From a virus (Duplodnaviria; Caudoviricetes), in IMG/VR virus record IMGVR_UViG_3300048576_000598, positions 1 through 42,140 of that record: DNA of 42,140 nt; one strand, 5' to 3'. Shown piece after piece: positions 6,805 to 42,140 of the stretch; within the stretch, counting starts at the first letter, position 1; every line of letters begins with the position of its first letter. Below the pieces are notes generated by a model. It saw only the letters and a program-made list of their open reading frames with translations. It did no database searches and was not told the origin of the DNA. A program made the translations under genes and the position numbers.

Positions 6805-7559
6805 TTCAGAAATCCGTAGCCGCCGTAGCTCATACTGAAGACCATCCAGTCGCTACCACCCAGCGTGACGATGTCCTTGTTCACGTACTGTCCGTTCATG
6901 CGCAACAAGCGCACACCGGGCGCGAAACCCATCATCGAGTAGAAGTAGCTTGGCGTCGGACGACCAACTTCAATCGTGCAGGGATACAGGGGTGTCACGC
7001 CGTTGAAGGCGATGGGCGAATAGCTGTCGAGTTGGCGCGTGGTAGCGTTGTAGAAGGCCCGCACTGCATCCGTGCCGGAGGTGCCGACCTTCCACTTGTT
7101 CGTATTGCCGTCGATGTCGGCTCGCACATAGGTGCTGTAGGTGTCCGACAGGAAAGCACCGCCAGTGAACGTGCAGGCCTTGGTGATCGCCCCGAAGATG
7201 AGGGGCCCGTAAGTGGTGCTGGCCGTCTGCACGATGCAGTAACACCAGCCGTCGCCACCGAAGAGGAAATACTCGGCGCTGCCCGACATCTGCGACACGG
7301 AGAACGAACCCGAAGCGACGGTTTGCGAACTGTAGGCCAATCCACTACTGAAACTCGTCGATCCATACCAGGCGACGTAGCTCGCATAGGAATGCAGGTT
7401 AACGAACTGACCACTGGCGGCGTGCTGCAAATGCAGACGGTAGTAGCCGGCATCCGCCTGATACATCAACTGCGTGTAACCGCAGGAGCCGATGGCAAAG
7501 AGCCGAATCTTGTCGAGGAGATCGTTCGGCGAGGTGGTGATGCCGGATTGAAATGCCAT
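6801..7559 (-). CDS. Virion structural protein (252 aa)
   Basis: Tail-module position; N-terminus MAFQSG.T....DLL similar to adjacent gene. Confidence 0.65.
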   Translation of the reverse strand: MAFQSGITTSPNDLLDKIRLFAIGSCGYTQLMYQADAGYYRLHLQHAASGQFVNLHSYASYVAWYGSTSFSSGLAYSSQTVASGSFSVSQMSGSAEYFLFGGDGWCYCIVQTASTTYGPLIFGAITKACTFTGGAFLSDTYSTYVRADIDGNTNKWKVGTSGTDAVRAFYNATTRQLDSYSPIAFNGVTPLYPCTIEVGRPTPSYFYSMMGFAPGVRLLRMNGQYVNKDIVTLGGSDWMVFSMSYGGYGFLK

Positions 7560-21773: not shown

Positions 21774-21803
21774 CTTGGCTTTCCTCCAGAACAGCGCGTT
21801 CAT
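21774..21803 (+). promoter_or_regulatory. Conserved 30-bp element, copy 1
   Basis: CTTGGCTT-TCCTCCAGAA-CAGCGCGTTCAT, 34 nt before ATG 21838. Confidence 0.8.
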
Positions 21804-21837: not shown

Positions 21838-22017
21838 ATGAGTTACCCAATCAAAGCCCAGGTCGGCGATTACATCCGCATCGACGGGCGCGTACTGCGC
21901 GTCGTGTTTGTGAATGATCGAGACGAGCAACCCGAGTACGAACTAGAAAACGGCAGTTGCATCGGCAACCGCGATTTCAGCTACGACGACGTCCTCCTCG
22001 AATCCGAGGTGCGCTGA
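21838..22017 (+). CDS. Hypothetical protein (59 aa), cassette 1
   Basis: AAGGAG RBS + ATG 21838; MSYPIKAQVGDYIRIDG. Confidence 0.75.
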   Translation: MSYPIKAQVGDYIRIDGRVLRVVFVNDRDEQPEYELENGSCIGNRDFSYDDVLLESEVR

Positions 22018-22042: not shown

Positions 22043-22072
22043 CTTGGCTTCACTCTTGAACAGCGCGTTCAT
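22043..22072 (+). promoter_or_regulatory. Conserved 30-bp element, copy 2
   Basis: CTTGGCTT-CACTCTTGAA-CAGCGCGTTCAT, 34 nt before ATG 22107. Confidence 0.8.
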
Positions 22073-22106: not shown

Positions 22107-22304
22107 ATGAGCAAGCAAACCCCTCAAGTCAACCAAGCCCTCGAAACCCTGCTCCAGCAGATCGCACTGGACCACCTGTTCATCGAAACCCTGGAAACCC
22201 GCAACAGCGACCGGATGGACTTCCACGAGGTCAGTGTCTGGGGCGTCAAGAGCGCCCTGATGGCGGCCTACGAGGCGGGCCGACAGGCCGCGAAGCAGGC
22301 CTGA
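22107..22304 (+). CDS. DUF6900-like protein (65 aa), cassette 2
   Basis: AAGGAG RBS; IETLETRNSDRMDFHEVSVWGVKSALMAAYEAG signature. Confidence 0.78.
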   Translation: MSKQTPQVNQALETLLQQIALDHLFIETLETRNSDRMDFHEVSVWGVKSALMAAYEAGRQAAKQA

Positions 22305-22321: not shown

Positions 22322-22351
22322 CTTGGCTTCACTCTCGAACAGCGCGTTTAT
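22322..22351 (+). promoter_or_regulatory. Conserved 30-bp element, copy 3
   Basis: CTTGGCTT-CACTCTCGAA-CAGCGCGTTTAT, 34 nt before ATG 22386. Confidence 0.8.
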
Positions 22352-22385: not shown

Positions 22386-22934
22386 ATGACCACCATCCAA
22401 CTGAGCCATGCCCAGCACGCCATCCTCGCCTACGCCATCGAACACACCGGCGGCAAGATCGAATGGTTCCCTGACAACATTAAGGGCGGTGCCCGCACCA
22501 AGGTGCTGGAGGGCCTGTTCAACAAGGCCCTGGTCACCCGAGACAGCACCGACTGGTTCGTCGCCGCCGAGGGTTACGACGCCCTGGGGCGCGCACGACC
22601 GACGCCGGCCACCTTCCATCCTGACCCCGAGATCGAGGCCGCCGTGTCGGCCGCTGAGGCCAACTGGGCGCAAGAAAAACAGGTCGCGGCCCAGCGACAG
22701 CTCAAAGTCGGCGTCGAGGGCAAGCCCCGCATGCGCGACAACAGCAAGCAGGCCACCGTGATCCAGATGTTGCAGCGTCCCGAGGGTGCCACCATCAGCC
22801 AGATCTGCGCGGCCACCGGCTGGCAGGCACACACGGTACGCGGCACCTTTGCCGGTGCCTTCAAGAAAAAACTCGGGCTCAACCTTGCCTCCGAGAAGCC
22901 CGAAGGCAGCGAGCGCATCTACCGGATCGTTTGA
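22386..22934 (+). CDS. DUF3489 domain protein (winged-helix-like, 182 aa), cassette 3
   Basis: AAGGAG RBS; SKQATVIQMLQRPEGATI.QI..ATGWQAHTVRG...KKKLGL signature. Confidence 0.85.
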   Translation: MTTIQLSHAQHAILAYAIEHTGGKIEWFPDNIKGGARTKVLEGLFNKALVTRDSTDWFVAAEGYDALGRARPTPATFHPDPEIEAAVSAAEANWAQEKQVAAQRQLKVGVEGKPRMRDNSKQATVIQMLQRPEGATISQICAATGWQAHTVRGTFAGAFKKKLGLNLASEKPEGSERIYRIV

Positions 22935-22988: not shown

Positions 22989-23018
22989 CTTGGCTTCTCA
23001 ATCTAACAGCGCGTTCAT
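22989..23018 (+). promoter_or_regulatory. Conserved 30-bp element, copy 4
   Basis: CTTGGCTT-CTCAATCTAA-CAGCGCGTTCAT, 36 nt before ATG 23055. Confidence 0.8.
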
Positions 23019-23054: not shown

Positions 23055-23519
23055 ATGACCACCACCGTCCGCGCCCGTTTTACCCGCAAGCCCTGCAGCC
23101 TCGATGAGGTACTTCGCAACACAGACCCGAGCGCACAGCCTGAGCCTATCGCGATCGAGTTCCGAAAGGAACTGACTGCCGCCGAGTACGACGCCTTCGC
23201 CAGCTCCCTGCTGGAGGATCGCGAATGGCTTACCGGACGCGGTGGCCACGCAAATGGTCAACGACAAGTCGTGGAGGTCAGCGCCCCTGGCCGCACCACC
23301 CTCTACGTCGATCCCTCCGGCAGCAGCTACGGGCGTTACGTCGGGGTGGCGATCGAGTCGCCGACACCCAGCAACGACCAGGCCAGCGCGATTCGCTGGC
23401 TGCTCGACAATCGCCGGCCCGAAGTCAGCATCGATCAGGCGCTGCGCACCCTGCGCATCGCATTGTGCTGCGACGCCGGTGCCATGGAATTGCTCGACCA
23501 AATCGCCTCGGAAAAATGA
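23055..23519 (+). CDS. Hypothetical protein (154 aa; N-terminal part possibly DUF6329-like), cassette 4
   Basis: GGAG RBS; F.RKP, EYDAF...LL.D..WL, LYVDPSGSSYGRYVG. Confidence 0.72.
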   Translation: MTTTVRARFTRKPCSLDEVLRNTDPSAQPEPIAIEFRKELTAAEYDAFASSLLEDREWLTGRGGHANGQRQVVEVSAPGRTTLYVDPSGSSYGRYVGVAIESPTPSNDQASAIRWLLDNRRPEVSIDQALRTLRIALCCDAGAMELLDQIASEK

Positions 23520-23541: not shown

Positions 23542-23571
23542 CTTGGCTTCTCAATCAAACAGCGCGTTCAT
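23542..23571 (+). promoter_or_regulatory. Conserved 30-bp element, copy 5
   Basis: CTTGGCTT-CTCAATCAAA-CAGCGCGTTCAT, 36 nt before ATG 23608. Confidence 0.8.
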
Positions 23572-23607: not shown

Positions 23608-23985
23608 ATGACTACCAAGCAAACCATCCCCGCATCCCAGAACGAAGCCTGGGGCTTTTTTGGCACGATGAACGACAACGCCGCAGCCGCCTGGCCGATC
23701 GCGATGACCGCGATCTCGGACGCCACCCACCAGCCCCTCGAGTCGGTCAGACTATTCCTAGACAGCCGCCACGGACGCCACTTTGCGGATGACGTCCTCA
23801 ACGAGATGCTGCGGGGCCACGCGATCCAGCAGGCCATCGACGCCGCCGTGACGCGGTGGATGGGCTGGACGATTGGCCGCCAGACCAGCAAGGACTACGG
23901 CATCCCCAAGGGCCTGCCTTACCTGACTGGCTTCGTGATCCACTGCGAAGTGACCGACGAGTCCTTCGAAACCGAAGCAGCGTAA
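23608..23985 (+). CDS. Hypothetical protein (125 aa), cassette 5
   Basis: AAGGAG RBS + ATG 23608; NEAWGFFGTM, FLDSRHGRHFADDV, GIP.GLPYLTGFV. Confidence 0.78.
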   Translation: MTTKQTIPASQNEAWGFFGTMNDNAAAAWPIAMTAISDATHQPLESVRLFLDSRHGRHFADDVLNEMLRGHAIQQAIDAAVTRWMGWTIGRQTSKDYGIPKGLPYLTGFVIHCEVTDESFETEAA

Positions 23986-23995
23986 GGAGATCCCC

Positions 23996-24202
23996 ATGGC
24001 CGCCGTCGTTACCACCCCGCAACTCGAAGCCAACTACGACAAGTTCATCACCGAACTGACCAAACTCACCCGCAAGTACGGTGTGGCAATCCAGTCAGTC
24101 GGCGGAGTCCACCTCGCTGACAACCCCGGCGAGTTCCGCAATGTTCACTACGTCGCTGATATCACCAGCGGCGATCTCCTGCCGGAGTTCCCCACCGACT
24201 GA
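23996..24202 (+). CDS. Hypothetical protein (68 aa), last gene of the inverted array
   Basis: TAAGGAG RBS right after the previous stop; no 30-bp element of its own; overlaps the 3' end of the methyltransferase convergently. Confidence 0.65.
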   Translation: MAAVVTTPQLEANYDKFITELTKLTRKYGVAIQSVGGVHLADNPGEFRNVHYVADITSGDLLPEFPTD

Positions 24203-25441
24203 CAGCGCGTCGAATGCCACGCCATCGGACAGCCTGATGGCCTTCGCCCCGGCATAGTCCTGCCAGCGGCGAACGATCACATCGACGTACTTCGGATCCA
24301 GTTCGATCAGCCGCGCCTTGCGGCCCGACTTATGCGCCGCGATCATCGTGGTGCCCGACCCACCGAATGGATCCAGCACCACGTCGCCCGGCCGGCTCGA
24401 ATTCCGGATCGCCCGTTCCACCAATTCCACCGGCTTCATGGTCGGGTGCAGATCGTTCTTCTGCGGCTTCTTGATCTGCCAGACATCGCCCTGGTCACGG
24501 TCGCCGCACCAGTGACGCTCGGCGCCCTCGGGCCAGCCGTAGAGAATCGGTTCGTACTGACGCTGATAGTCGGCACGCCCCAGGGTGAAGGTATTCTTGG
24601 CCCAAATCACGAAGGTGGACCAGTGGCCGCCCGCCGCACGGAACGCCGCCTGCAAGCGGTCCAGTTCGCTCGACGACATGGCCACATAGATGCCACCCTG
24701 GCAATGCGCCACGGTGGGCGTCAGTGCGGCCAGCAAGAAATCGTAGAACCCGTCACCGAGGTTGTCGTTGAGGATCGCGCGATCCTTGCCGCGCATTTTG
24801 TCCTTGGCCGAGTTGGCGTAATTGACGTTGTACGGCGGATCCGTAAATACCATGTCGGCGATCTCGTCGCCCAGTAAAGCTGCGTAGGCATCGGCATCAG
24901 TCGAGTCCCCGCAGAGCACGCGGTGCTCCCCGCAGATCCAGACATCACCAGCCCTGGATACAACGGGGCCAGTGTCTTCCGGAACGGCATCCTCGTCGGT
25001 ATCGCCTTCGGTGGTAGTTTCCTCACCGGCGAGCAGGTCGGCCAGGGCATCGGCATCGAAGCCGGTCAGGGTCAGGTCGAAGTTGTCATCCTGCAATGCG
25101 GCCAGTTCGACCTGGAGCATGGCATCGTCCCAGCCGGCGTTTTCGGCGATCCGGTTATCCGCGATCACCAGGGCGCGACGCTGCGTCGGCGTCAGGTGAT
25201 CGAGGATCACGACCGGCACTGTCGGGATGCCGAGTTTCTGGGCCGCCGCCAGACGGCCATGCCCCGCCACGATGACGCCATCGCCACCAGCCAGGATCGG
25301 ATTGGTGAAACCGAACTCGGCAATCGACGCAGCGATCTGCGCCACTTGAGCATCCGAATGCGTCCGGGCATTGCGGGCATAGGGCACCAGCTTGGCAGTC
25401 GGCCACTGTTCGATCTTGTCGGCCAGCCACGAAATCGTCAT
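24095..25441 (-). CDS. ParB-domain / N6-N4 DNA methyltransferase (DPPY)
   Basis: ParB-like N-terminus (AGHGRL.AA, IADNR); FTDPPY, HPTMKPVEL, LDPFGGSGTT (beta-class motif order). Confidence 0.92.
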   Translation of the reverse strand: MTISWLADKIEQWPTAKLVPYARNARTHSDAQVAQIAASIAEFGFTNPILAGGDGVIVAGHGRLAAAQKLGIPTVPVVILDHLTPTQRRALVIADNRIAENAGWDDAMLQVELAALQDDNFDLTLTGFDADALADLLAGEETTTEGDTDEDAVPEDTGPVVSRAGDVWICGEHRVLCGDSTDADAYAALLGDEIADMVFTDPPYNVNYANSAKDKMRGKDRAILNDNLGDGFYDFLLAALTPTVAHCQGGIYVAMSSSELDRLQAAFRAAGGHWSTFVIWAKNTFTLGRADYQRQYEPILYGWPEGAERHWCGDRDQGDVWQIKKPQKNDLHPTMKPVELVERAIRNSSRPGDVVLDPFGGSGTTMIAAHKSGRKARLIELDPKYVDVIVRRWQDYAGAKAIRLSDGVAFDALSVGGELRQEIAAGDISDVVNIAELAGVVSEVDSAD

Positions 25442-26832
25442 GCGGGTGCTCCCAAGCGTTCTGCGGCAACCGCATCAAAGGACTGGCCAGTGTTTACCAG
25501 CGTGACCGGCACCTCCGGGAAGTTCTGCTGGAAACGTTTGATGGTCACATCAACATACTCGGGCGCAATCTCGGTGGCCCGCACTACGCGGCCAGTGCGT
25601 TGCGCAGCAAGCAGCGTGGTGCCTGATCCGCAGAATGGTTCGAACACGATGTCGCCATCGTCGGTGTAGGTTTCCAGAATGTGCTCTGGCAGTGCCACCG
25701 GGAATACCGCCGGGTGATCGATGTCCTGTCCGATCTTTCCCTTGTGCCGCATGATGCGGATCACGGAATCCGGAATCTTGGTGTCCTGCGTTGGTGTGCC
25801 GGCAGCTGTCCAGCCACCAATCGTTCCATCTTTTTTGCGCATGGCCGTGGAACTGCCGTCCTTGCGTAGATGCGTTTCCTGACCCGCAAACTTGCAGGGC
25901 ATGATCTTGTTGGCCTGGCGTGCCTGGCGGTTGAAGTGGAAGACAAACTCGAACGAAGGTGCCAGCCGACCATTCCAGTCACCGGGCAATCCTGGCCCCT
26001 GGTCCCAGACGTACCAGGCAAAACGCCGCCAGCCCTGCGTGCGCATCCAGTCGAGCCAACCATCCCAGTAGGGTATGACCTCGTTGTCGCGATGGATCAG
26101 CCCAAGATTGACCAGCACCTGGCCGTTCGGAGCCATCGGCAATTGATTGAATACGCCGCGCATCAGGGCATCCCAATCAATGATGGTGTTCGTGTAGTCC
26201 CGCTGGTTGCCGTAGGGCGGCGAGGTGAAGCACAGCTCCGCCTGCTCGCCGGCCATCAAAGCAGCGACCACGGTGGCATCGGCGGCATCACCACAGATCA
26301 CGCGATGCGCACCCAGTTGCCAGACATCGCCCGGGCGTGTAACCGGATTGGCTGGCGTATCGGGTACCTCGTCGGCAGCATCGTCGGAATCAGCCGAGGA
26401 CTCCTCGGCCGTTCCTTCCCCACCATCCACCAGTAAGTCTTCAATTTCCTCGTTGGAAAATCCGGTCAGCGCCAGGTCGTAACCTGACTCCGTGAGTTCC
26501 GCCAGTTCGGTGGCGAGCATCTCTTCATCCCATCCCGCATCGAGTGCCAGGCGGTTGTCCGCGATTACATAGGCGCGCTTCTGTGACGGCGAGAGGTGGC
26601 CGAGTTCGATGACCGGCACCTCGGACAGGCCGAGCTTGCGCGCAGCGGCCAGGCGACCGTGTCCGGCAATGATGCCGTGGCTACCATCGACCAGGACCGG
26701 GTTGGTCCAGCCAAACTCGACGATGCTGGCCGCGAGCTTGGCGATCTGCGCCTCGGAATGCGTTCGCGGATTGCGGGCGAACGGGATCAGCGTCTCGACC
26801 TTCCGGTATTCGACGTTCAAGGTTTGGGTCAT
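25438..26832 (-). CDS. ParB-domain / N6-N4 DNA methyltransferase (SPPY)
   Basis: ParB-like N-terminus; FTSPPY, HPAVFP, EPFCGSGTT; start placed at ATG 26832. Confidence 0.92.
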   Translation of the reverse strand: MTQTLNVEYRKVETLIPFARNPRTHSEAQIAKLAASIVEFGWTNPVLVDGSHGIIAGHGRLAAARKLGLSEVPVIELGHLSPSQKRAYVIADNRLALDAGWDEEMLATELAELTESGYDLALTGFSNEEIEDLLVDGGEGTAEESSADSDDAADEVPDTPANPVTRPGDVWQLGAHRVICGDAADATVVAALMAGEQAELCFTSPPYGNQRDYTNTIIDWDALMRGVFNQLPMAPNGQVLVNLGLIHRDNEVIPYWDGWLDWMRTQGWRRFAWYVWDQGPGLPGDWNGRLAPSFEFVFHFNRQARQANKIMPCKFAGQETHLRKDGSSTAMRKKDGTIGGWTAAGTPTQDTKIPDSVIRIMRHKGKIGQDIDHPAVFPVALPEHILETYTDDGDIVFEPFCGSGTTLLAAQRTGRVVRATEIAPEYVDVTIKRFQQNFPEVPVTLVNTGQSFDAVAAERLGAPA

Positions 26833-26839
26833 GGAATGC

Positions 26840-26863
26840 AAAAACCCGCCACAGTGGGCGGGT
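26840..26863 (-). terminator. Terminator-like hairpin just before the first late gene
   Basis: Minus strand ACCCGCC-CACTGT-GGCGGGT-TTTTGCATT. Confidence 0.65.
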
Positions 26864-35453: not shown

Positions 35454-35924
35454 TTACTCCTGAAGCAATGCAAGACGGAACCCGGGCTTGCCGGTTTTGA
35501 GGGTGCGCGCCGGTGCAAACGCGCTTTTCAGCGTTTCTGGCCAGGCGTTGAACTTGGTTTCTGAGACCCGGTAGCTGATCTCGACGTACTCGGCAGGGTT
35601 GTCCCCGTTGGCCGTCATCCGGCACACGAGATCGGCCAGCTTTTTCTGATCCCAATCGACTTTTTTGGGGAGATCGGCAGTGACCTGAACATGGCCGTCA
35701 TCGAAATGCACGACGCCGGTGTCCTTGCCTGCAGCCAGGCGCAGGGCATGTGCTTGTTTCGAGTACTTCAGGTCCAAGGCGCGATCGAGGTGATCGACGA
35801 CAGCTTTGGCCAAGGCCTGTAGATCAGCGGCGTCGTTCTTGAGTTGGAACAACGACTCGCTGGTCTGGAGTGCCAGATCGCCGGCCGGCATGGCCAGAAC
35901 TTGGTGGGGTGTCAGCTGATTCAT
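35454..35924 (-). CDS. Hypothetical protein (156 aa; Gp157/Gam-like position)
   Basis: GGAGG RBS; helical N-terminus, LPKKVDWDQ..L, ARTLKTGKPGF; upstream of the Sak4-like gene. Confidence 0.68.
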   Translation of the reverse strand: MNQLTPHQVLAMPAGDLALQTSESLFQLKNDAADLQALAKAVVDHLDRALDLKYSKQAHALRLAAGKDTGVVHFDDGHVQVTADLPKKVDWDQKKLADLVCRMTANGDNPAEYVEISYRVSETKFNAWPETLKSAFAPARTLKTGKPGFRLALLQE

Positions 35925-36133
35925 GCCGCACCTCCCGCATTGACGGGTTCATAGGTGCTCTTGCGGAGGCTTTCGGCCTCGAAGGCTTCGACGTCCTCCA
36001 AGCGATAGAGAACACGGCCTTGCAGCTTAAGAAAGACCGGTCCGATTCCTTCAGAACGCCAACGCTCCAGAGTGGCTTCGCTGACGTCCCAACGGTCGCC
36101 CAATTGACGCTGGTTGAGGTGTTTTACGCTCAC
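35921..36133 (-). CDS. Xis/AlpA-like HTH DNA-binding protein
   Basis: AAAGGAG RBS + GTG; LNQRQL..RW.VSEATLERWR..G.GP.FLKL.GRVLYR. Confidence 0.85.
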   Translation of the reverse strand: MSVKHLNQRQLGDRWDVSEATLERWRSEGIGPVFLKLQGRVLYRLEDVEAFEAESLRKSTYEPVNAGGAA

Positions 36134-36187: not shown

Positions 36188-36230
36188 TGTATGGGGGTCG
36201 ATCCGCCCTATGTATGGGCTGATGTATGGG
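36188..36230. promoter_or_regulatory. Three TGTATGGG direct repeats upstream of the replication operon
   Basis: Copies start at 36188, 36211, 36223. Confidence 0.55.
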
Positions 36231-38600: not shown

Positions 38601-38700
38601 TTTCGTTCGGTACGCCGAACTTGTTGTGATTATTTCTGGTAGCTTATGGGTTTGTCAAGCAGTTACGTTTTCGTTCGGTCTGGTGGTAACATTTGCGTTC
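38601..38700. promoter_or_regulatory. Candidate operators in the divergent control region
   Basis: Inverted repeat GTTCGG-TACG-CCGAAC (38605-38620); TTTCGTTCGGT at 38601 and 38669; AT-richer than flanks. Confidence 0.55.
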
Positions 38701-38726
38701 TAAATCGGATCAACGAGGAGAAAACA

Positions 38727-39047
38727 GTGCCGTCCCCTCTAGGCAACAAGATCCGCGAACTGCGGAAGCAAAAGAAGCTCAGCCTTGAGCAACTGGCTGA
38801 ACTCACCGAGTCCAGCAAGAGCTACATCTGGGAACTGGAAAACAAGGACGACCCAAAACCATCTGCCGAAAAAACTGCCAAGATCGCGGCCGTGCTGGAA
38901 GTCACTGCTGAGTTCTTGCTGAGCGACAGCGTGACCACCCCTGACGAGGAAGTCGCCGACGAGGCGTTTTTCCGCAAGTTCAAAAAGCTATCGGAACCGG
39001 ACAAAAAGAAAATCCGCAAGATCCTGGACGCTTGGGAAGATGAATGA
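38727..39047 (+). CDS. XRE-family HTH repressor
   Basis: GAGGAG RBS + GTG 38727; LGNKIRELRKQKKLSLEQLAELTESSKSYIWELEN; no S24 peptidase domain. Confidence 0.9.
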   Translation: MPSPLGNKIRELRKQKKLSLEQLAELTESSKSYIWELENKDDPKPSAEKTAKIAAVLEVTAEFLLSDSVTTPDEEVADEAFFRKFKKLSEPDKKKIRKILDAWEDE

Positions 39048-39952
39048 CTGAGCACAAGAAACCCATGGCCGAGGCCAACCGTATTTCCAGCATGCTCAAC
39101 GCTGTGCTGGGTAAGGAGCGGTTCCCGGTCAAGGTCGACGAACTGGCCGTCGAGTATTCCCGCCAGTGCTTTCCCGACTCGCCCATCGACAAGGTGGAAG
39201 GCGCCGACCTTGAGGACTTCGACGGTCTCCTGAAGGCGAAAAAGGATCGATCAAAGTGGCTGATCCTCTACAACAGCGCTGTCTCGTCGGAAGGACGCAA
39301 ACGCTTCACGATCGCGCATGAGTTCGGCCACTACATCCTGCATCGCCACCAACAAACCGAATTTGCGTGTGGCGACGACGATATTGAATCCGGGGACAGT
39401 CGCGATATCGAGTCGGAAGCCGACCTGTTTGCCTCAACCCTGCTCATGCCCTTGGACGATTTCCGGCGCCAAGTCGACGGGCAGAAAATCAGCTTCGACT
39501 TGCTTGGCCACTGTGCCGACCGCTACGGGGTGTCGCTCACAGCCGCCGCCTTACGATGGACAGAGATCGCCGAAAAACGGGCCATCCTCATCGCCAGCCG
39601 CGATGACCACATGCTGTGGGCAAAGTCGAACCTGGCTGCTGTGAAATCCGGGGCGTACTTCCCGACCCGGAAAAACACGATCGAACTCCCACCAGAGGCT
39701 TTGGCGCATAGCAACAACGCATGGCTGTCAAACCAGGAGCAAACCACCCGTGCGCAGGTTTGGTTTTACCGCGAGCCACAGAGCATGCCCATCACCGAAA
39801 TGACACGGGTGGCCGGGCAGTACGACTACACCTTGACGCTGCTGCTGATGCCCGATGCAGAGTGGCAGCGCCCTTGGCATGGCGATGAAGAATCCGAAGA
39901 AGACACCTTCGATCGGTTCATCCGAAACGGCCAGTTTCCATCGAAAAAATAG
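39044..39952 (+). CDS. ImmA/IrrE-family metallo-endopeptidase
   Basis: RKRFTIAHEFGH (HEXXH), E.EADLFASTLLMP, YGVSLTAA; ATGA-coupled to the repressor. Confidence 0.92.
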   Translation: MTEHKKPMAEANRISSMLNAVLGKERFPVKVDELAVEYSRQCFPDSPIDKVEGADLEDFDGLLKAKKDRSKWLILYNSAVSSEGRKRFTIAHEFGHYILHRHQQTEFACGDDDIESGDSRDIESEADLFASTLLMPLDDFRRQVDGQKISFDLLGHCADRYGVSLTAAALRWTEIAEKRAILIASRDDHMLWAKSNLAAVKSGAYFPTRKNTIELPPEALAHSNNAWLSNQEQTTRAQVWFYREPQSMPITEMTRVAGQYDYTLTLLLMPDAEWQRPWHGDEESEEDTFDRFIRNGQFPSKK

Positions 39953-40084
39953 CCGGATTTTTGCTGCGCTTTTCGCATCAGCCCTAACGGGCAATCAGGA
40001 GCCCTAAATTCCCTCCTGGCACTGTGAATGACCCCCACGGACAATTTTGCCTTGAGCAAGTTGTACAGAAAGGATCGGTAACCA

Positions 40085-40300
40085 GTGCATGAAATCAACC
40101 AACACCCGCCCGAGGTGATGACCGCAGAGCAGCGTCGAACCGAGGCCGCAGCCCTGCTGGCAAGAGGGCTTGTCCGCCTGCGCGCAGCAGGCAGCAGAAA
40201 GTCCACAAATGTGGTCGGAAAGAGCGAGTTTGAGCTTGGCTTCTCCGGTCACCAGCGCGTTCATACAGACCCCGAGAACAACACCACGGAGTCACGATGA
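40085..40300 (+). CDS. Hypothetical protein (71 aa)
   Basis: AAAGGA RBS + GTG; stop overlaps the DUF2924 start; contains copy 6 of the element. Confidence 0.45.
   Translation: MHEINQHPPEVMTAEQRRTEAAALLARGLVRLRAAGSRKSTNVVGKSEFELGFSGHQRVHTDPENNTTESR
40235..40264 (+). promoter_or_regulatory. Conserved 30-bp element, copy 6
   Basis: CTTGGCTT-CTCCGGTCAC-CAGCGCGTTCAT, 32 nt before ATG 40297. Confidence 0.8.
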
Positions 40301-40797
40301 ACACCGCCCCCGCCAGCCACACCACCTCAGTCTCGGTGACGGCTCAAATCACACAACTTCCGGATCTGTCGATGTCCGACATCAAGTCCATCTGGAAGGA
40401 GCTGTTCCACGCCGACACGCCGACCCATAACCGGCAGTTCCTAGAGCGGCGCATTGCTTATCGGCTGCAAGAGATCGAGTTTCGGAAAGTCGACCGAAGT
40501 TTGGTCGACCGCAACAAACGACGCATCCAGCAAATTCTCGACTCTGGCAAGAACAAGAAGCTGGATCGCGATATTCGGATGATGGCTGGCACCGTACTCA
40601 CCAGGGAATACCAAGGCCACGAGTACCGCGTCATGGCCACCACGGATGGCCAATACGAGTTCGAAGGACGGCTGTATCAAAGCCTGTCTCGGATTGCCAA
40701 GGAGATCACGGGAACAGCATGGTCAGGGCCACTGTTCTTTGGCTTGAAGACCTACGCCGGCAAAAAACCAGCCACCAAGAAAGGGGGCAAGAAATGA
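40297..40797 (+). CDS. DUF2924 domain protein
   Basis: W..LF....P...R.FLERRIAYRLQE, GTVLTREYQG, SLSRIAKEITGTAWSGPLFFGL. Confidence 0.88.
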   Translation: MNTAPASHTTSVSVTAQITQLPDLSMSDIKSIWKELFHADTPTHNRQFLERRIAYRLQEIEFRKVDRSLVDRNKRRIQQILDSGKNKKLDRDIRMMAGTVLTREYQGHEYRVMATTDGQYEFEGRLYQSLSRIAKEITGTAWSGPLFFGLKTYAGKKPATKKGGKK

Positions 40798-42140
40798 ACG
40801 AAATTCTCAAGCGGCGCCAGCGCTGCGCGGTCTATTGCCGTGTCTCCACGGACGAACGCCTGGATCAGGAGTTCAACTCGATCGACGCGCAACGTGAAGC
40901 CGGCCATGCGTACATCGCCAGTCAGCGATCAGAGGGGTGGATTCCCGTCGCAGATGATTACGATGACCCAGGTTTTTCGGGTGGCAACACCGAACGCCCT
41001 GCGCTGAAACGTCTGATCACAGACATCGAAGAAGGCAAGATCGACATCGTCGTCGTATACAAGATTGACCGACTGACCCGCAGCCTGGCCGACTTCTCCA
41101 AGATGGTCGAAGTGTTCGAGCGACAGGGCGTGTCATTTGTGTCAGTGACGCAGCAGTTCAATACCACCACGTCGATGGGGCGCTTGATGCTGAATGTCTT
41201 GCTGTCGTTTGCCCAGTTCGAACGGGAGGTCACCGGCGAACGCATCCGCGACAAGATTGCTGCATCCAAGCGCAAAGGGATGTGGATGGGTGGCGTTCCA
41301 CCGATTGGCTACGACGTTGAAAATCGCCGCTTGGTACCCAACGGCCGCGAATCCAAACTCGTCCGGTTCATCTTTGAACGCTTCCTGGAGCTCGGCTCTA
41401 GCACCAAGCTGGTCAAGGAGCTTCAACTGGAGGGAGCCACTACCAAGTCATGGACGACGCAGGACGGCAACCACCGTCCGGGAAAATTGATCGACAAAAC
41501 CAGCGTCTATCAGATCCTCAACAACCGCACCTACCTTGGCGAGCTGCGGCACAAAGAACAGTGGTTCAAAGCCGAACATCCCCCGATCATCGAGCGAAGC
41601 GTTTTTGATGCCGTGCAGGCCATCCTCGAGGTCAATCCGAGAGTGCGTGCCAACAACACGCGCGCCAAGATCCCCTTCCTCCTCAAAGGCGTGGTCGAGG
41701 GTCACGACGGCCGAGCGTTGACACCAGCCTGGACCCGAAAAGGGAATGGCCGACTTTATCGGTACTACATGCACACCCGGGAGAACAAAGAATTCGCCGG
41801 CGCATCCGGACTCCCACGGCTCCCGGCCACCGAACTGGAGGCCACCGTCGTTGAGCAGATGCGTCGCGTCTGGCGGAATCCGGAAATGATTTCACGCGTC
41901 AGCGAACACGCCATGCGAATGGACCCGGACACCAACGAGGCCCACGTTTGGATCGCGATGGCGCAGATCGACAAGATTTGGGAGCAGCTGTTCCCTGCCG
42001 AACAGCATCGCATTGTCCGCCTGCTCATTGAAAAGGTGATCGTGACGCCGCACAACTTGGAGGTTCGCTTCCGCCCGAATGGACTGGATATGTTGGCACG
42101 GGAAGTGAAACCAACGACCACAGAAGAGGTGACAGCATGA
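40794..42140 (+). CDS. Large serine recombinase (integrase)
   Basis: AVYCRVST catalytic Ser, DRLTRS, FAQFERE...ERIRD, G...PIGY, HPPII; ATG 40794 overlaps the DUF2924 stop. Confidence 0.93.
   Translation: MNEILKRRQRCAVYCRVSTDERLDQEFNSIDAQREAGHAYIASQRSEGWIPVADDYDDPGFSGGNTERPALKRLITDIEEGKIDIVVVYKIDRLTRSLADFSKMVEVFERQGVSFVSVTQQFNTTTSMGRLMLNVLLSFAQFEREVTGERIRDKIAASKRKGMWMGGVPPIGYDVENRRLVPNGRESKLVRFIFERFLELGSSTKLVKELQLEGATTKSWTTQDGNHRPGKLIDKTSVYQILNNRTYLGELRHKEQWFKAEHPPIIERSVFDAVQAILEVNPRVRANNTRAKIPFLLKGVVEGHDGRALTPAWTRKGNGRLYRYYMHTRENKEFAGASGLPRLPATELEATVVEQMRRVWRNPEMISRVSEHAMRMDPDTNEAHVWIAMAQIDKIWEQLFPAEQHRIVRLLIEKVIVTPHNLEVRFRPNGLDMLAREVKPTTTEEVTA

Follow-up and report, generated by a model that had tools for sequence, protein, structure and literature searches.

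A promoter-like motif shared by cassette genes and the serine integrase operon of a prophage family, with one copy inside a predicted excision factor gene

The 42,140 nt viral sequence IMGVR_UViG_3300048576_000598, analysed here over its whole length and referred to as the window, is the genome of a temperate phage whose head genes resemble those of lambda. It contains six exact copies of a bipartite motif, CTTGGCTT-N10-CAGCGCGTTYAT: five precede small genes in a cassette array, and the sixth precedes a gene pair encoding a DUF2924 protein and a large serine recombinase. The reading that accounts best for the observations, to which we assign a probability of about 0.55, is that the motif is a conserved activator-dependent promoter, and that the sixth copy, lying in the 3' end of a gene for a predicted recombination directionality factor (RDF), gives rise to a DUF2924-integrase message without the RDF. 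Judged from the sequences surveyed, the motif is family-wide across very widespread prophages and islands, and both it and the small gene that contains the sixth copy are apparently undescribed.

Motif copies in the window

The late and replication genes are on the minus strand, and the integration module is on the plus strand at the right end of the window (Table 1). All six motif copies are on the plus strand, with copies 1 to 5 heading small genes that run antisense between the methylase and terminase genes. No further copy is found at up to three mismatches, a threshold at which shuffled windows contain a mean of 0.01 matches; the preliminary description of this sequence had likewise judged a chance match very unlikely. 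The window pattern scan reproduced its claim of a sixth exact copy, with the same 10 nt spacer and orientation, 32 nt before the DUF2924 ATG; the gap from the array, given there as about 16.6 kb, is 16,693 nt from the start of copy 5 to that of copy 6, and the naming of the two genes behind this copy agrees with their Pfam matches. The distances from copies 1 to 6 to the following ATG are 34, 34, 34, 36, 36 and 32 nt. The suggested -35 and -10-like arrangement, TTGGCT-17-GTTCAT, holds for five of the six copies and breaks down in the third, which reads GTTTAT. Rfam 15 covariance models gave no match at any copy at E values up to 1, and PADLOC returned nothing for the six cassette proteins.

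A conserved small gene spans the sixth copy

The distance from the motif to the DUF2924 start is 29, 32 or 35 nt in 31 of 32 viral cases, while array genes show a continuous spread. This led to the suspicion that a reading frame crosses the motif. Among 113 distinct DUF2924 loci (three lacking a motif with a 10 nt spacer having been dropped), 108 have at least 40 open codons upstream in the frame CTT GGC TT, compared with 17 and 22 in the other two frames; array copies of the motif exhibit no frame preference (57, 87 and 47 of 173). The stop codon of this small open reading frame (ORF) overlaps an ATG in 104 of the 113 loci, and in 97 of these it does so 27-36 nt past the motif, the distance of the DUF2924 start. 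In the window, the stop likewise overlaps the DUF2924 ATG, and the motif forms codons 51-60, within the last third of the ORF.

Third-position entropy in the small ORF is 1.52, against 0.99 and 0.77 at the other positions, a pattern of the coding type. A hidden Markov model (HMM) of the small protein, built here, matches all 30 of the top distant loci, and the arginine and glutamate of its amphipathic helix are invariant. Within the motif, by contrast, codon choice is fixed: leucine is CTT in 67 of 67 cases (17 of 256 in the helix block of the same gene), valine is GTT in 62 of 62 (8 of 96) and histidine is CAT in 66 of 66 (5 of 22). The combination of codon fixation with a real coding gene implies that the motif, as a DNA element, is embedded in the tail of the small gene; on this sequence evidence, the ORF is a real gene whose tail is constrained at the DNA level. 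As the motif lies past the helix codons, a transcript starting from copy 6 would carry DUF2924 and the integrase and omit the helix of the predicted RDF. No Pfam or PHROG family was found in more than 4 of 32 members of the small protein family; comparison with PDB profiles gave a best E value of 0.011, to a short helix, and matches in the Atlas were to unnamed clusters only. A likeness to lambda CIII found no support.

Predicted interaction with the integrase

Structure prediction of the small protein with the integrase gave a complex score of 0.78, the best of three controls scoring 0.40. The first 40 aligned residues of the small protein were folded with integrase residues 165-448 in one job, with this partner only. 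Scores were read against a calibrated mark, reached by 116 of 157 solved pairs and 2 of 215 mismatched pairs, which is roughly valid for the alignments used. Runs agree in at least 87% of contacts and the pLDDT of the partner is at least 75. The predicted interface comprises integrase residues 359-411, where contacts are best at 395-411, and 427-431; it follows a degenerate zinc-ribbon match at residues 296-357. Solved structures can be aligned as far as integrase residue 356 only; we infer that the stretch past the zinc ribbon corresponds to the coiled coil with its base. Verified RDFs are predicted to bind the junction of DBD2 and the coiled coil, according to Shin et al. (PMC12286644). The model supports, without showing, binding of the small protein to the C-terminal helical region of the integrase, and the protein is predicted to be the excision factor of this integrase.

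Promoter-like structure of the motif and a second upstream site

When read as a promoter, the motif has TTGGCT at -35, a 17 nt spacer and G at -14. This G is near-invariant, as are the T found at -10, the A at -8 and the T at -7. The -35 TTG and the 17 nt spacer are those of a canonical sigma-70 promoter, and the T at -7 is kept, but the A expected at -11 is not: this slot holds T in at least nine tenths of 202 array and 92 DUF2924 copies, including all six in the window. Some distant array heads do have A in the -11 slot (GAACGT), which supports the promoter register. Since melting of a sigma-70 promoter is poor when the -11 A is lacking, a requirement for an activator is suggested; the motif is therefore likely to be an activator-dependent promoter, as far as can be told from its sequence. 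A sigma-70 consensus scan called none of the six copies, although it did call the phage early promoter (38658-38629, minus strand; TTGACA-18-AATAAT, 11 of 12 consensus positions). The latter drives the genes for the 410-aa and 335-aa proteins and overlaps the start of the XRE ORF. Sigma-32, sigma-54, ECF and LexA sites, compared by eye through their consensus sequences, were rejected for their misfit in spacing and variants. Four metatranscriptome runs were examined as contigs, possibly containing DNA, from which start site, strand and level were not readable.

Another conserved site of promoter-like appearance, different from the motif, precedes the small ORF. The sequence NANAAT is found at a fixed distance upstream of this ORF in 74 of 101 sequences, compared with 10 in shuffles. 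Assignment of the site to the same promoter class as the early operon was rejected, given alignment scores of 8.7 within the same phage, 8.4 with another phage and 7.95 when shuffled.

Distribution among phages, prophages and islands

The exact motif occurs in an estimated 900 or so IMG/VR stretches, a figure extrapolated from 9 of 64 database parts. In 150 viral loci there are 210 distinct exact matches, mostly 29-42 nt before an ATG: 32 precede DUF2924, 45 DUF3489, 33 DUF6900, 38 homologues of the other three matched cassette genes and 51 other ORFs, with 11 lacking a called ORF. Homologues of array genes are headed by 116 of the 210. The preliminary description had regarded absence of the motif upstream of DUF2924 homologues as grounds for abandoning its proposal; when loci were collected by DUF2924 protein homology, the motif was present upstream at up to two mismatches in 86 of 104, at three to seven in 16, and missing in two. 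These comprise 24 viral loci and 80 genomic ones (the best 80 of 339), many of them near-identical. Of 301 genomes sampled from the host's phylum, 64 have DUF2924 above the cut-off, frequently more than once. Among the 30 best distant DUF2924 loci, 27 carry a recognisable variant by an ad hoc score, mostly CTGGATAA-N10-CAATGCCCTTAT. The motif was not seen before DUF2924 in a Wolbachia WO record or in loci L155 and L240. At L155 and at L468 (genome G238), the DUF2924-recombinase pair is located elsewhere, adjoining methylase genes, and has no motif or small ORF directly upstream.

An isolated phage, Acidithiobacillus phage AcaML1 (JX507079), has three exact copies in an array and one before DUF2924, and its module of small ORF, DUF2924 and recombinase and its antisense array are laid out as in the window. 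It differs from the window in having contractile-tail genes, and its record annotates no regulatory element.

The two kinds of site vary together. When the boxes of DUF2924 copies were compared with those of array copies, using 12 prophages that have both, identity was 0.79 within the same phage and 0.62 across phages (permutation p = 5e-5); spacer identity in the same pairs is 0.385 against 0.348, which is not significant (p = 0.12). Relaxed patterns applied to 14 Mb of whole genomes placed 12 of 15 matches in elements of the family (control 1), the other three not being inspected; in a further 20.7 Mb, 9 of 11 did so (control 2). No host regulon was found in either scan, several of the genomes being incomplete. 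Different variants of the motif exist side by side in one host (G002, G441).

Table 1. Coordinates of the motif copies and associated features in the window
Feature	Coordinates	Strand	Remarks
Motif copy 1	21774..21803	+	Heads 59-aa cassette gene (21838-22017), back to back with the start of the terminase small subunit
Motif copy 2	22043..22072	+	Heads DUF6900 (22107-22304)
Motif copy 3	22322..22351	+	Heads DUF3489
DUF3489 protein gene	22386..22934	+	Predicted tandem winged-helix protein; leading candidate reader
Motif copy 4	22989..23018	+	Heads 154-aa cassette gene (23055-23519)
Motif copy 5	23542..23571	+	Heads 125-aa gene (23608-23985) and 68-aa gene (23996-24202)
AlpA/excisionase-like HTH_17 gene	35921..36133	-	First early-operon gene; second candidate reader, in 65 of 65 loci
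XRE repressor and IrrE-type peptidase pair, CapH/CapP-like	38646..39952	+	Directly upstream of the integration module; not universal
Second promoter-like site	40007..40045	+	Conserved block 40007-40019 and -10-like GACAAT 40040-40045; putative function
Conserved ORF of about 70 aa, predicted recombination directionality factor	40085..40300	+	Alternative ATG at 40118; no known family
Conserved amphipathic helix codons	40133..40189	+	Predicted integrase interface; wholly upstream of the motif
Motif copy 6	40235..40264	+	Putative internal promoter; -35 slot TTGGCT 40236-40241, -10 slot GTTCAT 40259-40264
DUF2924 gene	40297..40797	+	Family match (PF11149)
Large serine recombinase/integrase gene	40794..42140	+	PF00239 and PF07508; window ends at its stop codon

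Candidate regulators

The XRE protein, DUF6362 and the 335-aa and 410-aa proteins had been named as possible binders of the motif. AcaML1 carries the motif, yet a tblastn search of it gave no match to XRE, IrrE, DUF6362 or the 335-aa and 410-aa proteins, which means that none of the four originally named is a universal reader. For three of them the same follows from their frequency in 65 loci spanning the control region, where XRE occurs in 38, the 410-aa protein in 29 and the 335-aa protein in 28; IrrE occurs in 45 and HTH_17 in all 65.

DUF3489 is the commonest array gene among the exact viral matches, and the 13 distant arrays that were reached by way of DUF2924 contain it too. Records of Bradyrhizobium and Sphingobium show it in a single operon with DUF2924, a variant of the motif lying upstream; for 5 of 12 operons of this type a fixed pattern detects the variant (shuffle mean 1.0, maximum 4), four times at 112-115 nt before the ATG. 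The predicted fold of DUF3489 consists of two winged helices. For DUF2924, an N-terminal HeH/LEM/SAP-like and a C-terminal RAMA-like DNA-binding module are predicted, with weak Z-scores of about 5-6. The VIA Z-scores for DUF2924 and DUF3489 (up to 6.7 and 9.4) indicate generic folds only, and Foldseek found no match at E <=0.001 for either. A tandem winged-helix DUF3489 protein acting in a positive loop is, tentatively, the first-ranked candidate for the activator; the early AlpA-like HTH protein is ranked second, as a slightly less likely one. Leaders of about 110 nt, rich in GC and hairpins, precede DUF3489 in distant elements (L273:19495-19610, L274:19285-19398, L441, L448 and L452), and gave no match in Rfam.

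The leader of the early operon contains a repeat resembling the right box, and a full-motif score is attained in 4 of 60 HTH_17 leaders, all four belonging to island-type units. In the window, the HTH_17 leader (36188-36230, minus strand) has three phased direct repeats (CCCATACA), 12 and 23 nt apart, and those of relatives have the same layout with phage-specific repeats (CCCGTACA, TGCCCAC, GAGGAAT, CTCCCT). These are candidate sites for an activator of the early operon, for example the 335-aa protein. The XRE and peptidase genes match capH (E 7e-31) and capP (E 4e-72) in PADLOC; we take the pair to be probably a DNA-damage-responsive repressor of the prophage and its anti-repressor. Two ParB-methylase genes (24095-26841) lie by the array and DUF2924 has the predicted RAMA-like domain, and sensing of DNA methylation by the recombination module is a possibility.

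Proposed mechanism and alternatives

Under the activator-dependent promoter model, RNA polymerase would read the TTG/TGG at -35, the G at -14 and the T at -7, and would need an activator encoded by the element, since the -11 A is absent. The promoters would fire as lysogeny is set up, producing the integrase and DUF2924 from copy 6, and, from the array, DUF3489, the accessory proteins and RNA antisense to the methylase-terminase late operon. DUF3489, in its positive loop, would be the most likely activator, followed by the early AlpA-like protein. On induction, the upstream GACAAT promoter would instead express the small protein, DUF2924 and the integrase, coupled by overlapping start and stop codons, and thus cause excision. 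The repeated copies would also allow cassettes to be swapped by ordinary homologous recombination. The preliminary description had favoured a regulon coupling the integrase to the cassette genes through a promoter-shaped element; this coupling draws support from the way both kinds of site are conserved, keep their position and vary together, and the promoter function remains probable from the sequence.

Cargo and defence regions are a further setting of the motif, which there precedes AlpA-like genes. A pattern was derived from the leader that three of these loci share, with no more than the last five motif bases in it, and matched 121 metagenome stretches; of the 119 that could be scored, 115 have the complete motif, and in 96 an HTH_17 gene follows directly. 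DUF2924 or the recombinase is rarely nearby. In L532, L543, L561 and L588 (motif near 6975), the motif-AlpA units are situated directly after a conserved 373-374-aa gene and before varied restriction/defence-like genes, and may form an island family of their own. The most extensive version of the model, which seems to us improbable but worth stating, holds that proteobacterial prophages and islands of one very large family share a regulatory system not described before, in which DUF3489 makes up for the -11 A and opens the promoters, a one-helix RDF of a new family is left out of the integrase message through a promoter within its own codons, and defence islands, having acquired the motif before AlpA genes, sense lysogeny.

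Several points weigh against the preferred model. The fixed pattern caught just 5 of the 12 DUF3489-DUF2924 operons, five more being recognised by eye afterwards and one having no motif. The co-varying pairs share ancestry, hence the p-value overstates their independence, and 4 of the 13 distant arrays fell below the score threshold and were left out of that test; inspected by eye, these four contain further motif variants. The position given to the coiled coil is an extrapolation past residue 356, beyond which the solved structures do not align. The virtual pulldown of PMC12286644, in its accessible text, gave false positives among the predictions tested, and as integrase-RDF complexes have already been solved, the complex score may partly reflect likeness to these. 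A protein binding at this interface, folded here with one partner alone, could also be an inhibitor. Finally, the motif-AlpA units fit a signal for excision or induction at least as well as one for lysogeny.

This last point is the basis of a different reading, in which the motif is an induction or excision promoter at which a phage activator turns on DUF2924, DUF3489 and the integrase, the motif-AlpA islands listen in, and the small ORF encodes a modulator or inhibitor. It agrees with the position of the motif before AlpA-like genes outside the phage (96 of 119 loci) and at the head of DUF3489-DUF2924-recombinase operons with no small-ORF match upstream, and there is a precedent in the activation of SGI1 xis in trans by AcaCD, described in the accessible text of PMC5058578. 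That the array is antisense to the late operon, and so would harm lytic growth, and that the copy-6 transcript omits the predicted RDF helix make this reading unlikely. Rather unlikely, too, is a constitutive promoter of the 'moron' type, by which host holoenzyme alone would keep the integrase and accessory genes on in the prophage. The sigma-70 geometry, the A in the -11 slot of some distant copies and the occurrence of the motif in elements sharing little gene content would all suit it. By contrast, the prevailing -11 T does not, the roughly 20 conserved bases are far beyond the needs of sigma-70, the phage's own early promoter is canonical, and different variants coexist in one host; matches outside family elements are also few (3 of 15, uninspected, with a control of 1, and 2 of 11 with a control of 2).

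Autogenous repression by DUF3489 or DUF2924, giving negative feedback on the recombination module, would be consistent with both proteins being predicted to bind DNA and being encoded downstream of the motif in phages and islands alike. As a repressed promoter should have a working -10, while the motif mostly lacks the -11 A, and as the site is not palindromic, an operator-promoter of this kind has little likelihood. Least probable is a role of the motif as the site at which the serine recombinase captures or shuffles cassettes by recombination. Array content does vary, with 14 cassette protein families over 306 motif copies at 82 loci, but cassette order is kept in these loci without permutation. 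The junctions between the window and G001, a genome whose DUF2924 is 100% identical to that of the window, are located some 12 nt beyond the motif and within DUF3489; a weak test of linkage revealed no sharp crossover point; and the copy inside the coupled ORF keeps a spacer class of its own. Furthermore, the element in G001 is bounded by direct repeats of the tmRNA 3' end (C1:56345-56399 and 130854-130907), which do not resemble the motif and lie 14 kb away from it; this, together with the unpermuted order, leaves the cassette-capture site entertained in the preliminary description without support. Tm- or tRNA genes were found at 30 of 80 genomic DUF2924 loci, and from the sequence of its boundary the attachment site of the element is the tmRNA 3' end, not the motif; the att-arm motif AACAGGGA was not found near this end. 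Changing content, preserved order and junctions off the motif are in keeping with homologous exchange between the repeats.

Relationship to known systems

In lambda, the pI promoter lies within xis, and the CII site is a TTGC-N6-TTGC repeat around -35. The accessible text of PMC5300877 describes pL as expressing xis and int, CII-activated pI as expressing int only, and paQ as producing an antisense RNA. The proposed arrangement would have the same three features: integrase without RDF from an internal site, both from an upstream site, and RNA antisense to lytic genes. With one copy inside a predicted RDF gene and a second promoter-like site upstream, the analogy is closer than first proposed. 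The differences are also clear: the integrase is a serine rather than a tyrosine recombinase, the candidate RDF is of no known family, no CII homologue was identified, and neither the six copies nor the column counts show the TTGC-N6-TTGC repeat. Moreover, one to five further motif copies each head an accessory cassette, and DUF2924 and DUF3489 are additional proteins. The system may work like the lambda pI/CII regulon without belonging to it.

The small protein resembles the RDFs of serine integrases (SPbeta SprB, A118 gp44 and the predictions in the accessible part of PMC12286644) in its size and its predicted binding to the C-terminal helical region of the integrase. Unlike these, it would be an RDF with a single short helix, no family match, a place in the integrase's own operon and a promoter-like element inside its gene. 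The array is comparable with the PeSL cassettes of the T4-type phages RB49 and phi1, in which, as far as the accessible text of PMC2839356 goes, repeated elements consisting of a strong sigma-70-like promoter and a terminator stem-loop precede small non-essential genes in lytic phages and swaps occur between the repeats. The repeat-linked gain, loss and replacement of genes that characterise PeSLs are found in the array, but the motif is non-consensus, has no constant stem-loop, occurs in phages that are temperate and is common to the array and the integrase operon. As with AcaCD in IncC plasmids and SGI1 (PMC5058578) and with ICEclc (PMC9286271), again from the accessible texts, a long element-specific motif marks dispersed promoters (here putative ones), including those of recombination genes, and extends to unrelated islands. 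The AcaCD core, GCCCAAAATGGGC, differs from the motif, and no FlhDC-type activator was seen here.

The motif and the small gene were described nowhere in the open full-text literature searched, which excludes most subscription papers, among them the original AcaML1 reports, and the supplementary tables of PMC12286644. In the same search DUF2924 and DUF3489 were scarcely mentioned, all mentions of DUF2924 concerning Wolbachia, and nothing relevant was found on internal promoters in combination with serine integrases and RDFs. If the preferred model is true, it provides a candidate RDF, a missing part for reversible genome-editing tools, for a very large and unstudied group of serine integrases, and a second origin of lambda's logic of int without xis. 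A defined motif and two candidate proteins would make the lysogeny decision of the family testable in the isolated phage AcaML1, and there may be a signal common to phages and defence islands.

Genes beyond the end of the window

The genome G001 extends past the recombinase stop codon at which the window ends. Directly after the recombinase (L177:11841-12281) it encodes a 146-aa protein with a weak match to a ParB-type HTH (E 1e-4, under the cut-off). AcaML1 has two genes of this kind, which is likely to be part of the recombination module. Between this module and the tmRNA attachment end lies about 12 kb of cargo (G001:C1:56363-68400; L177:12328-20432), which includes SRAP-like, TetR and efflux genes.

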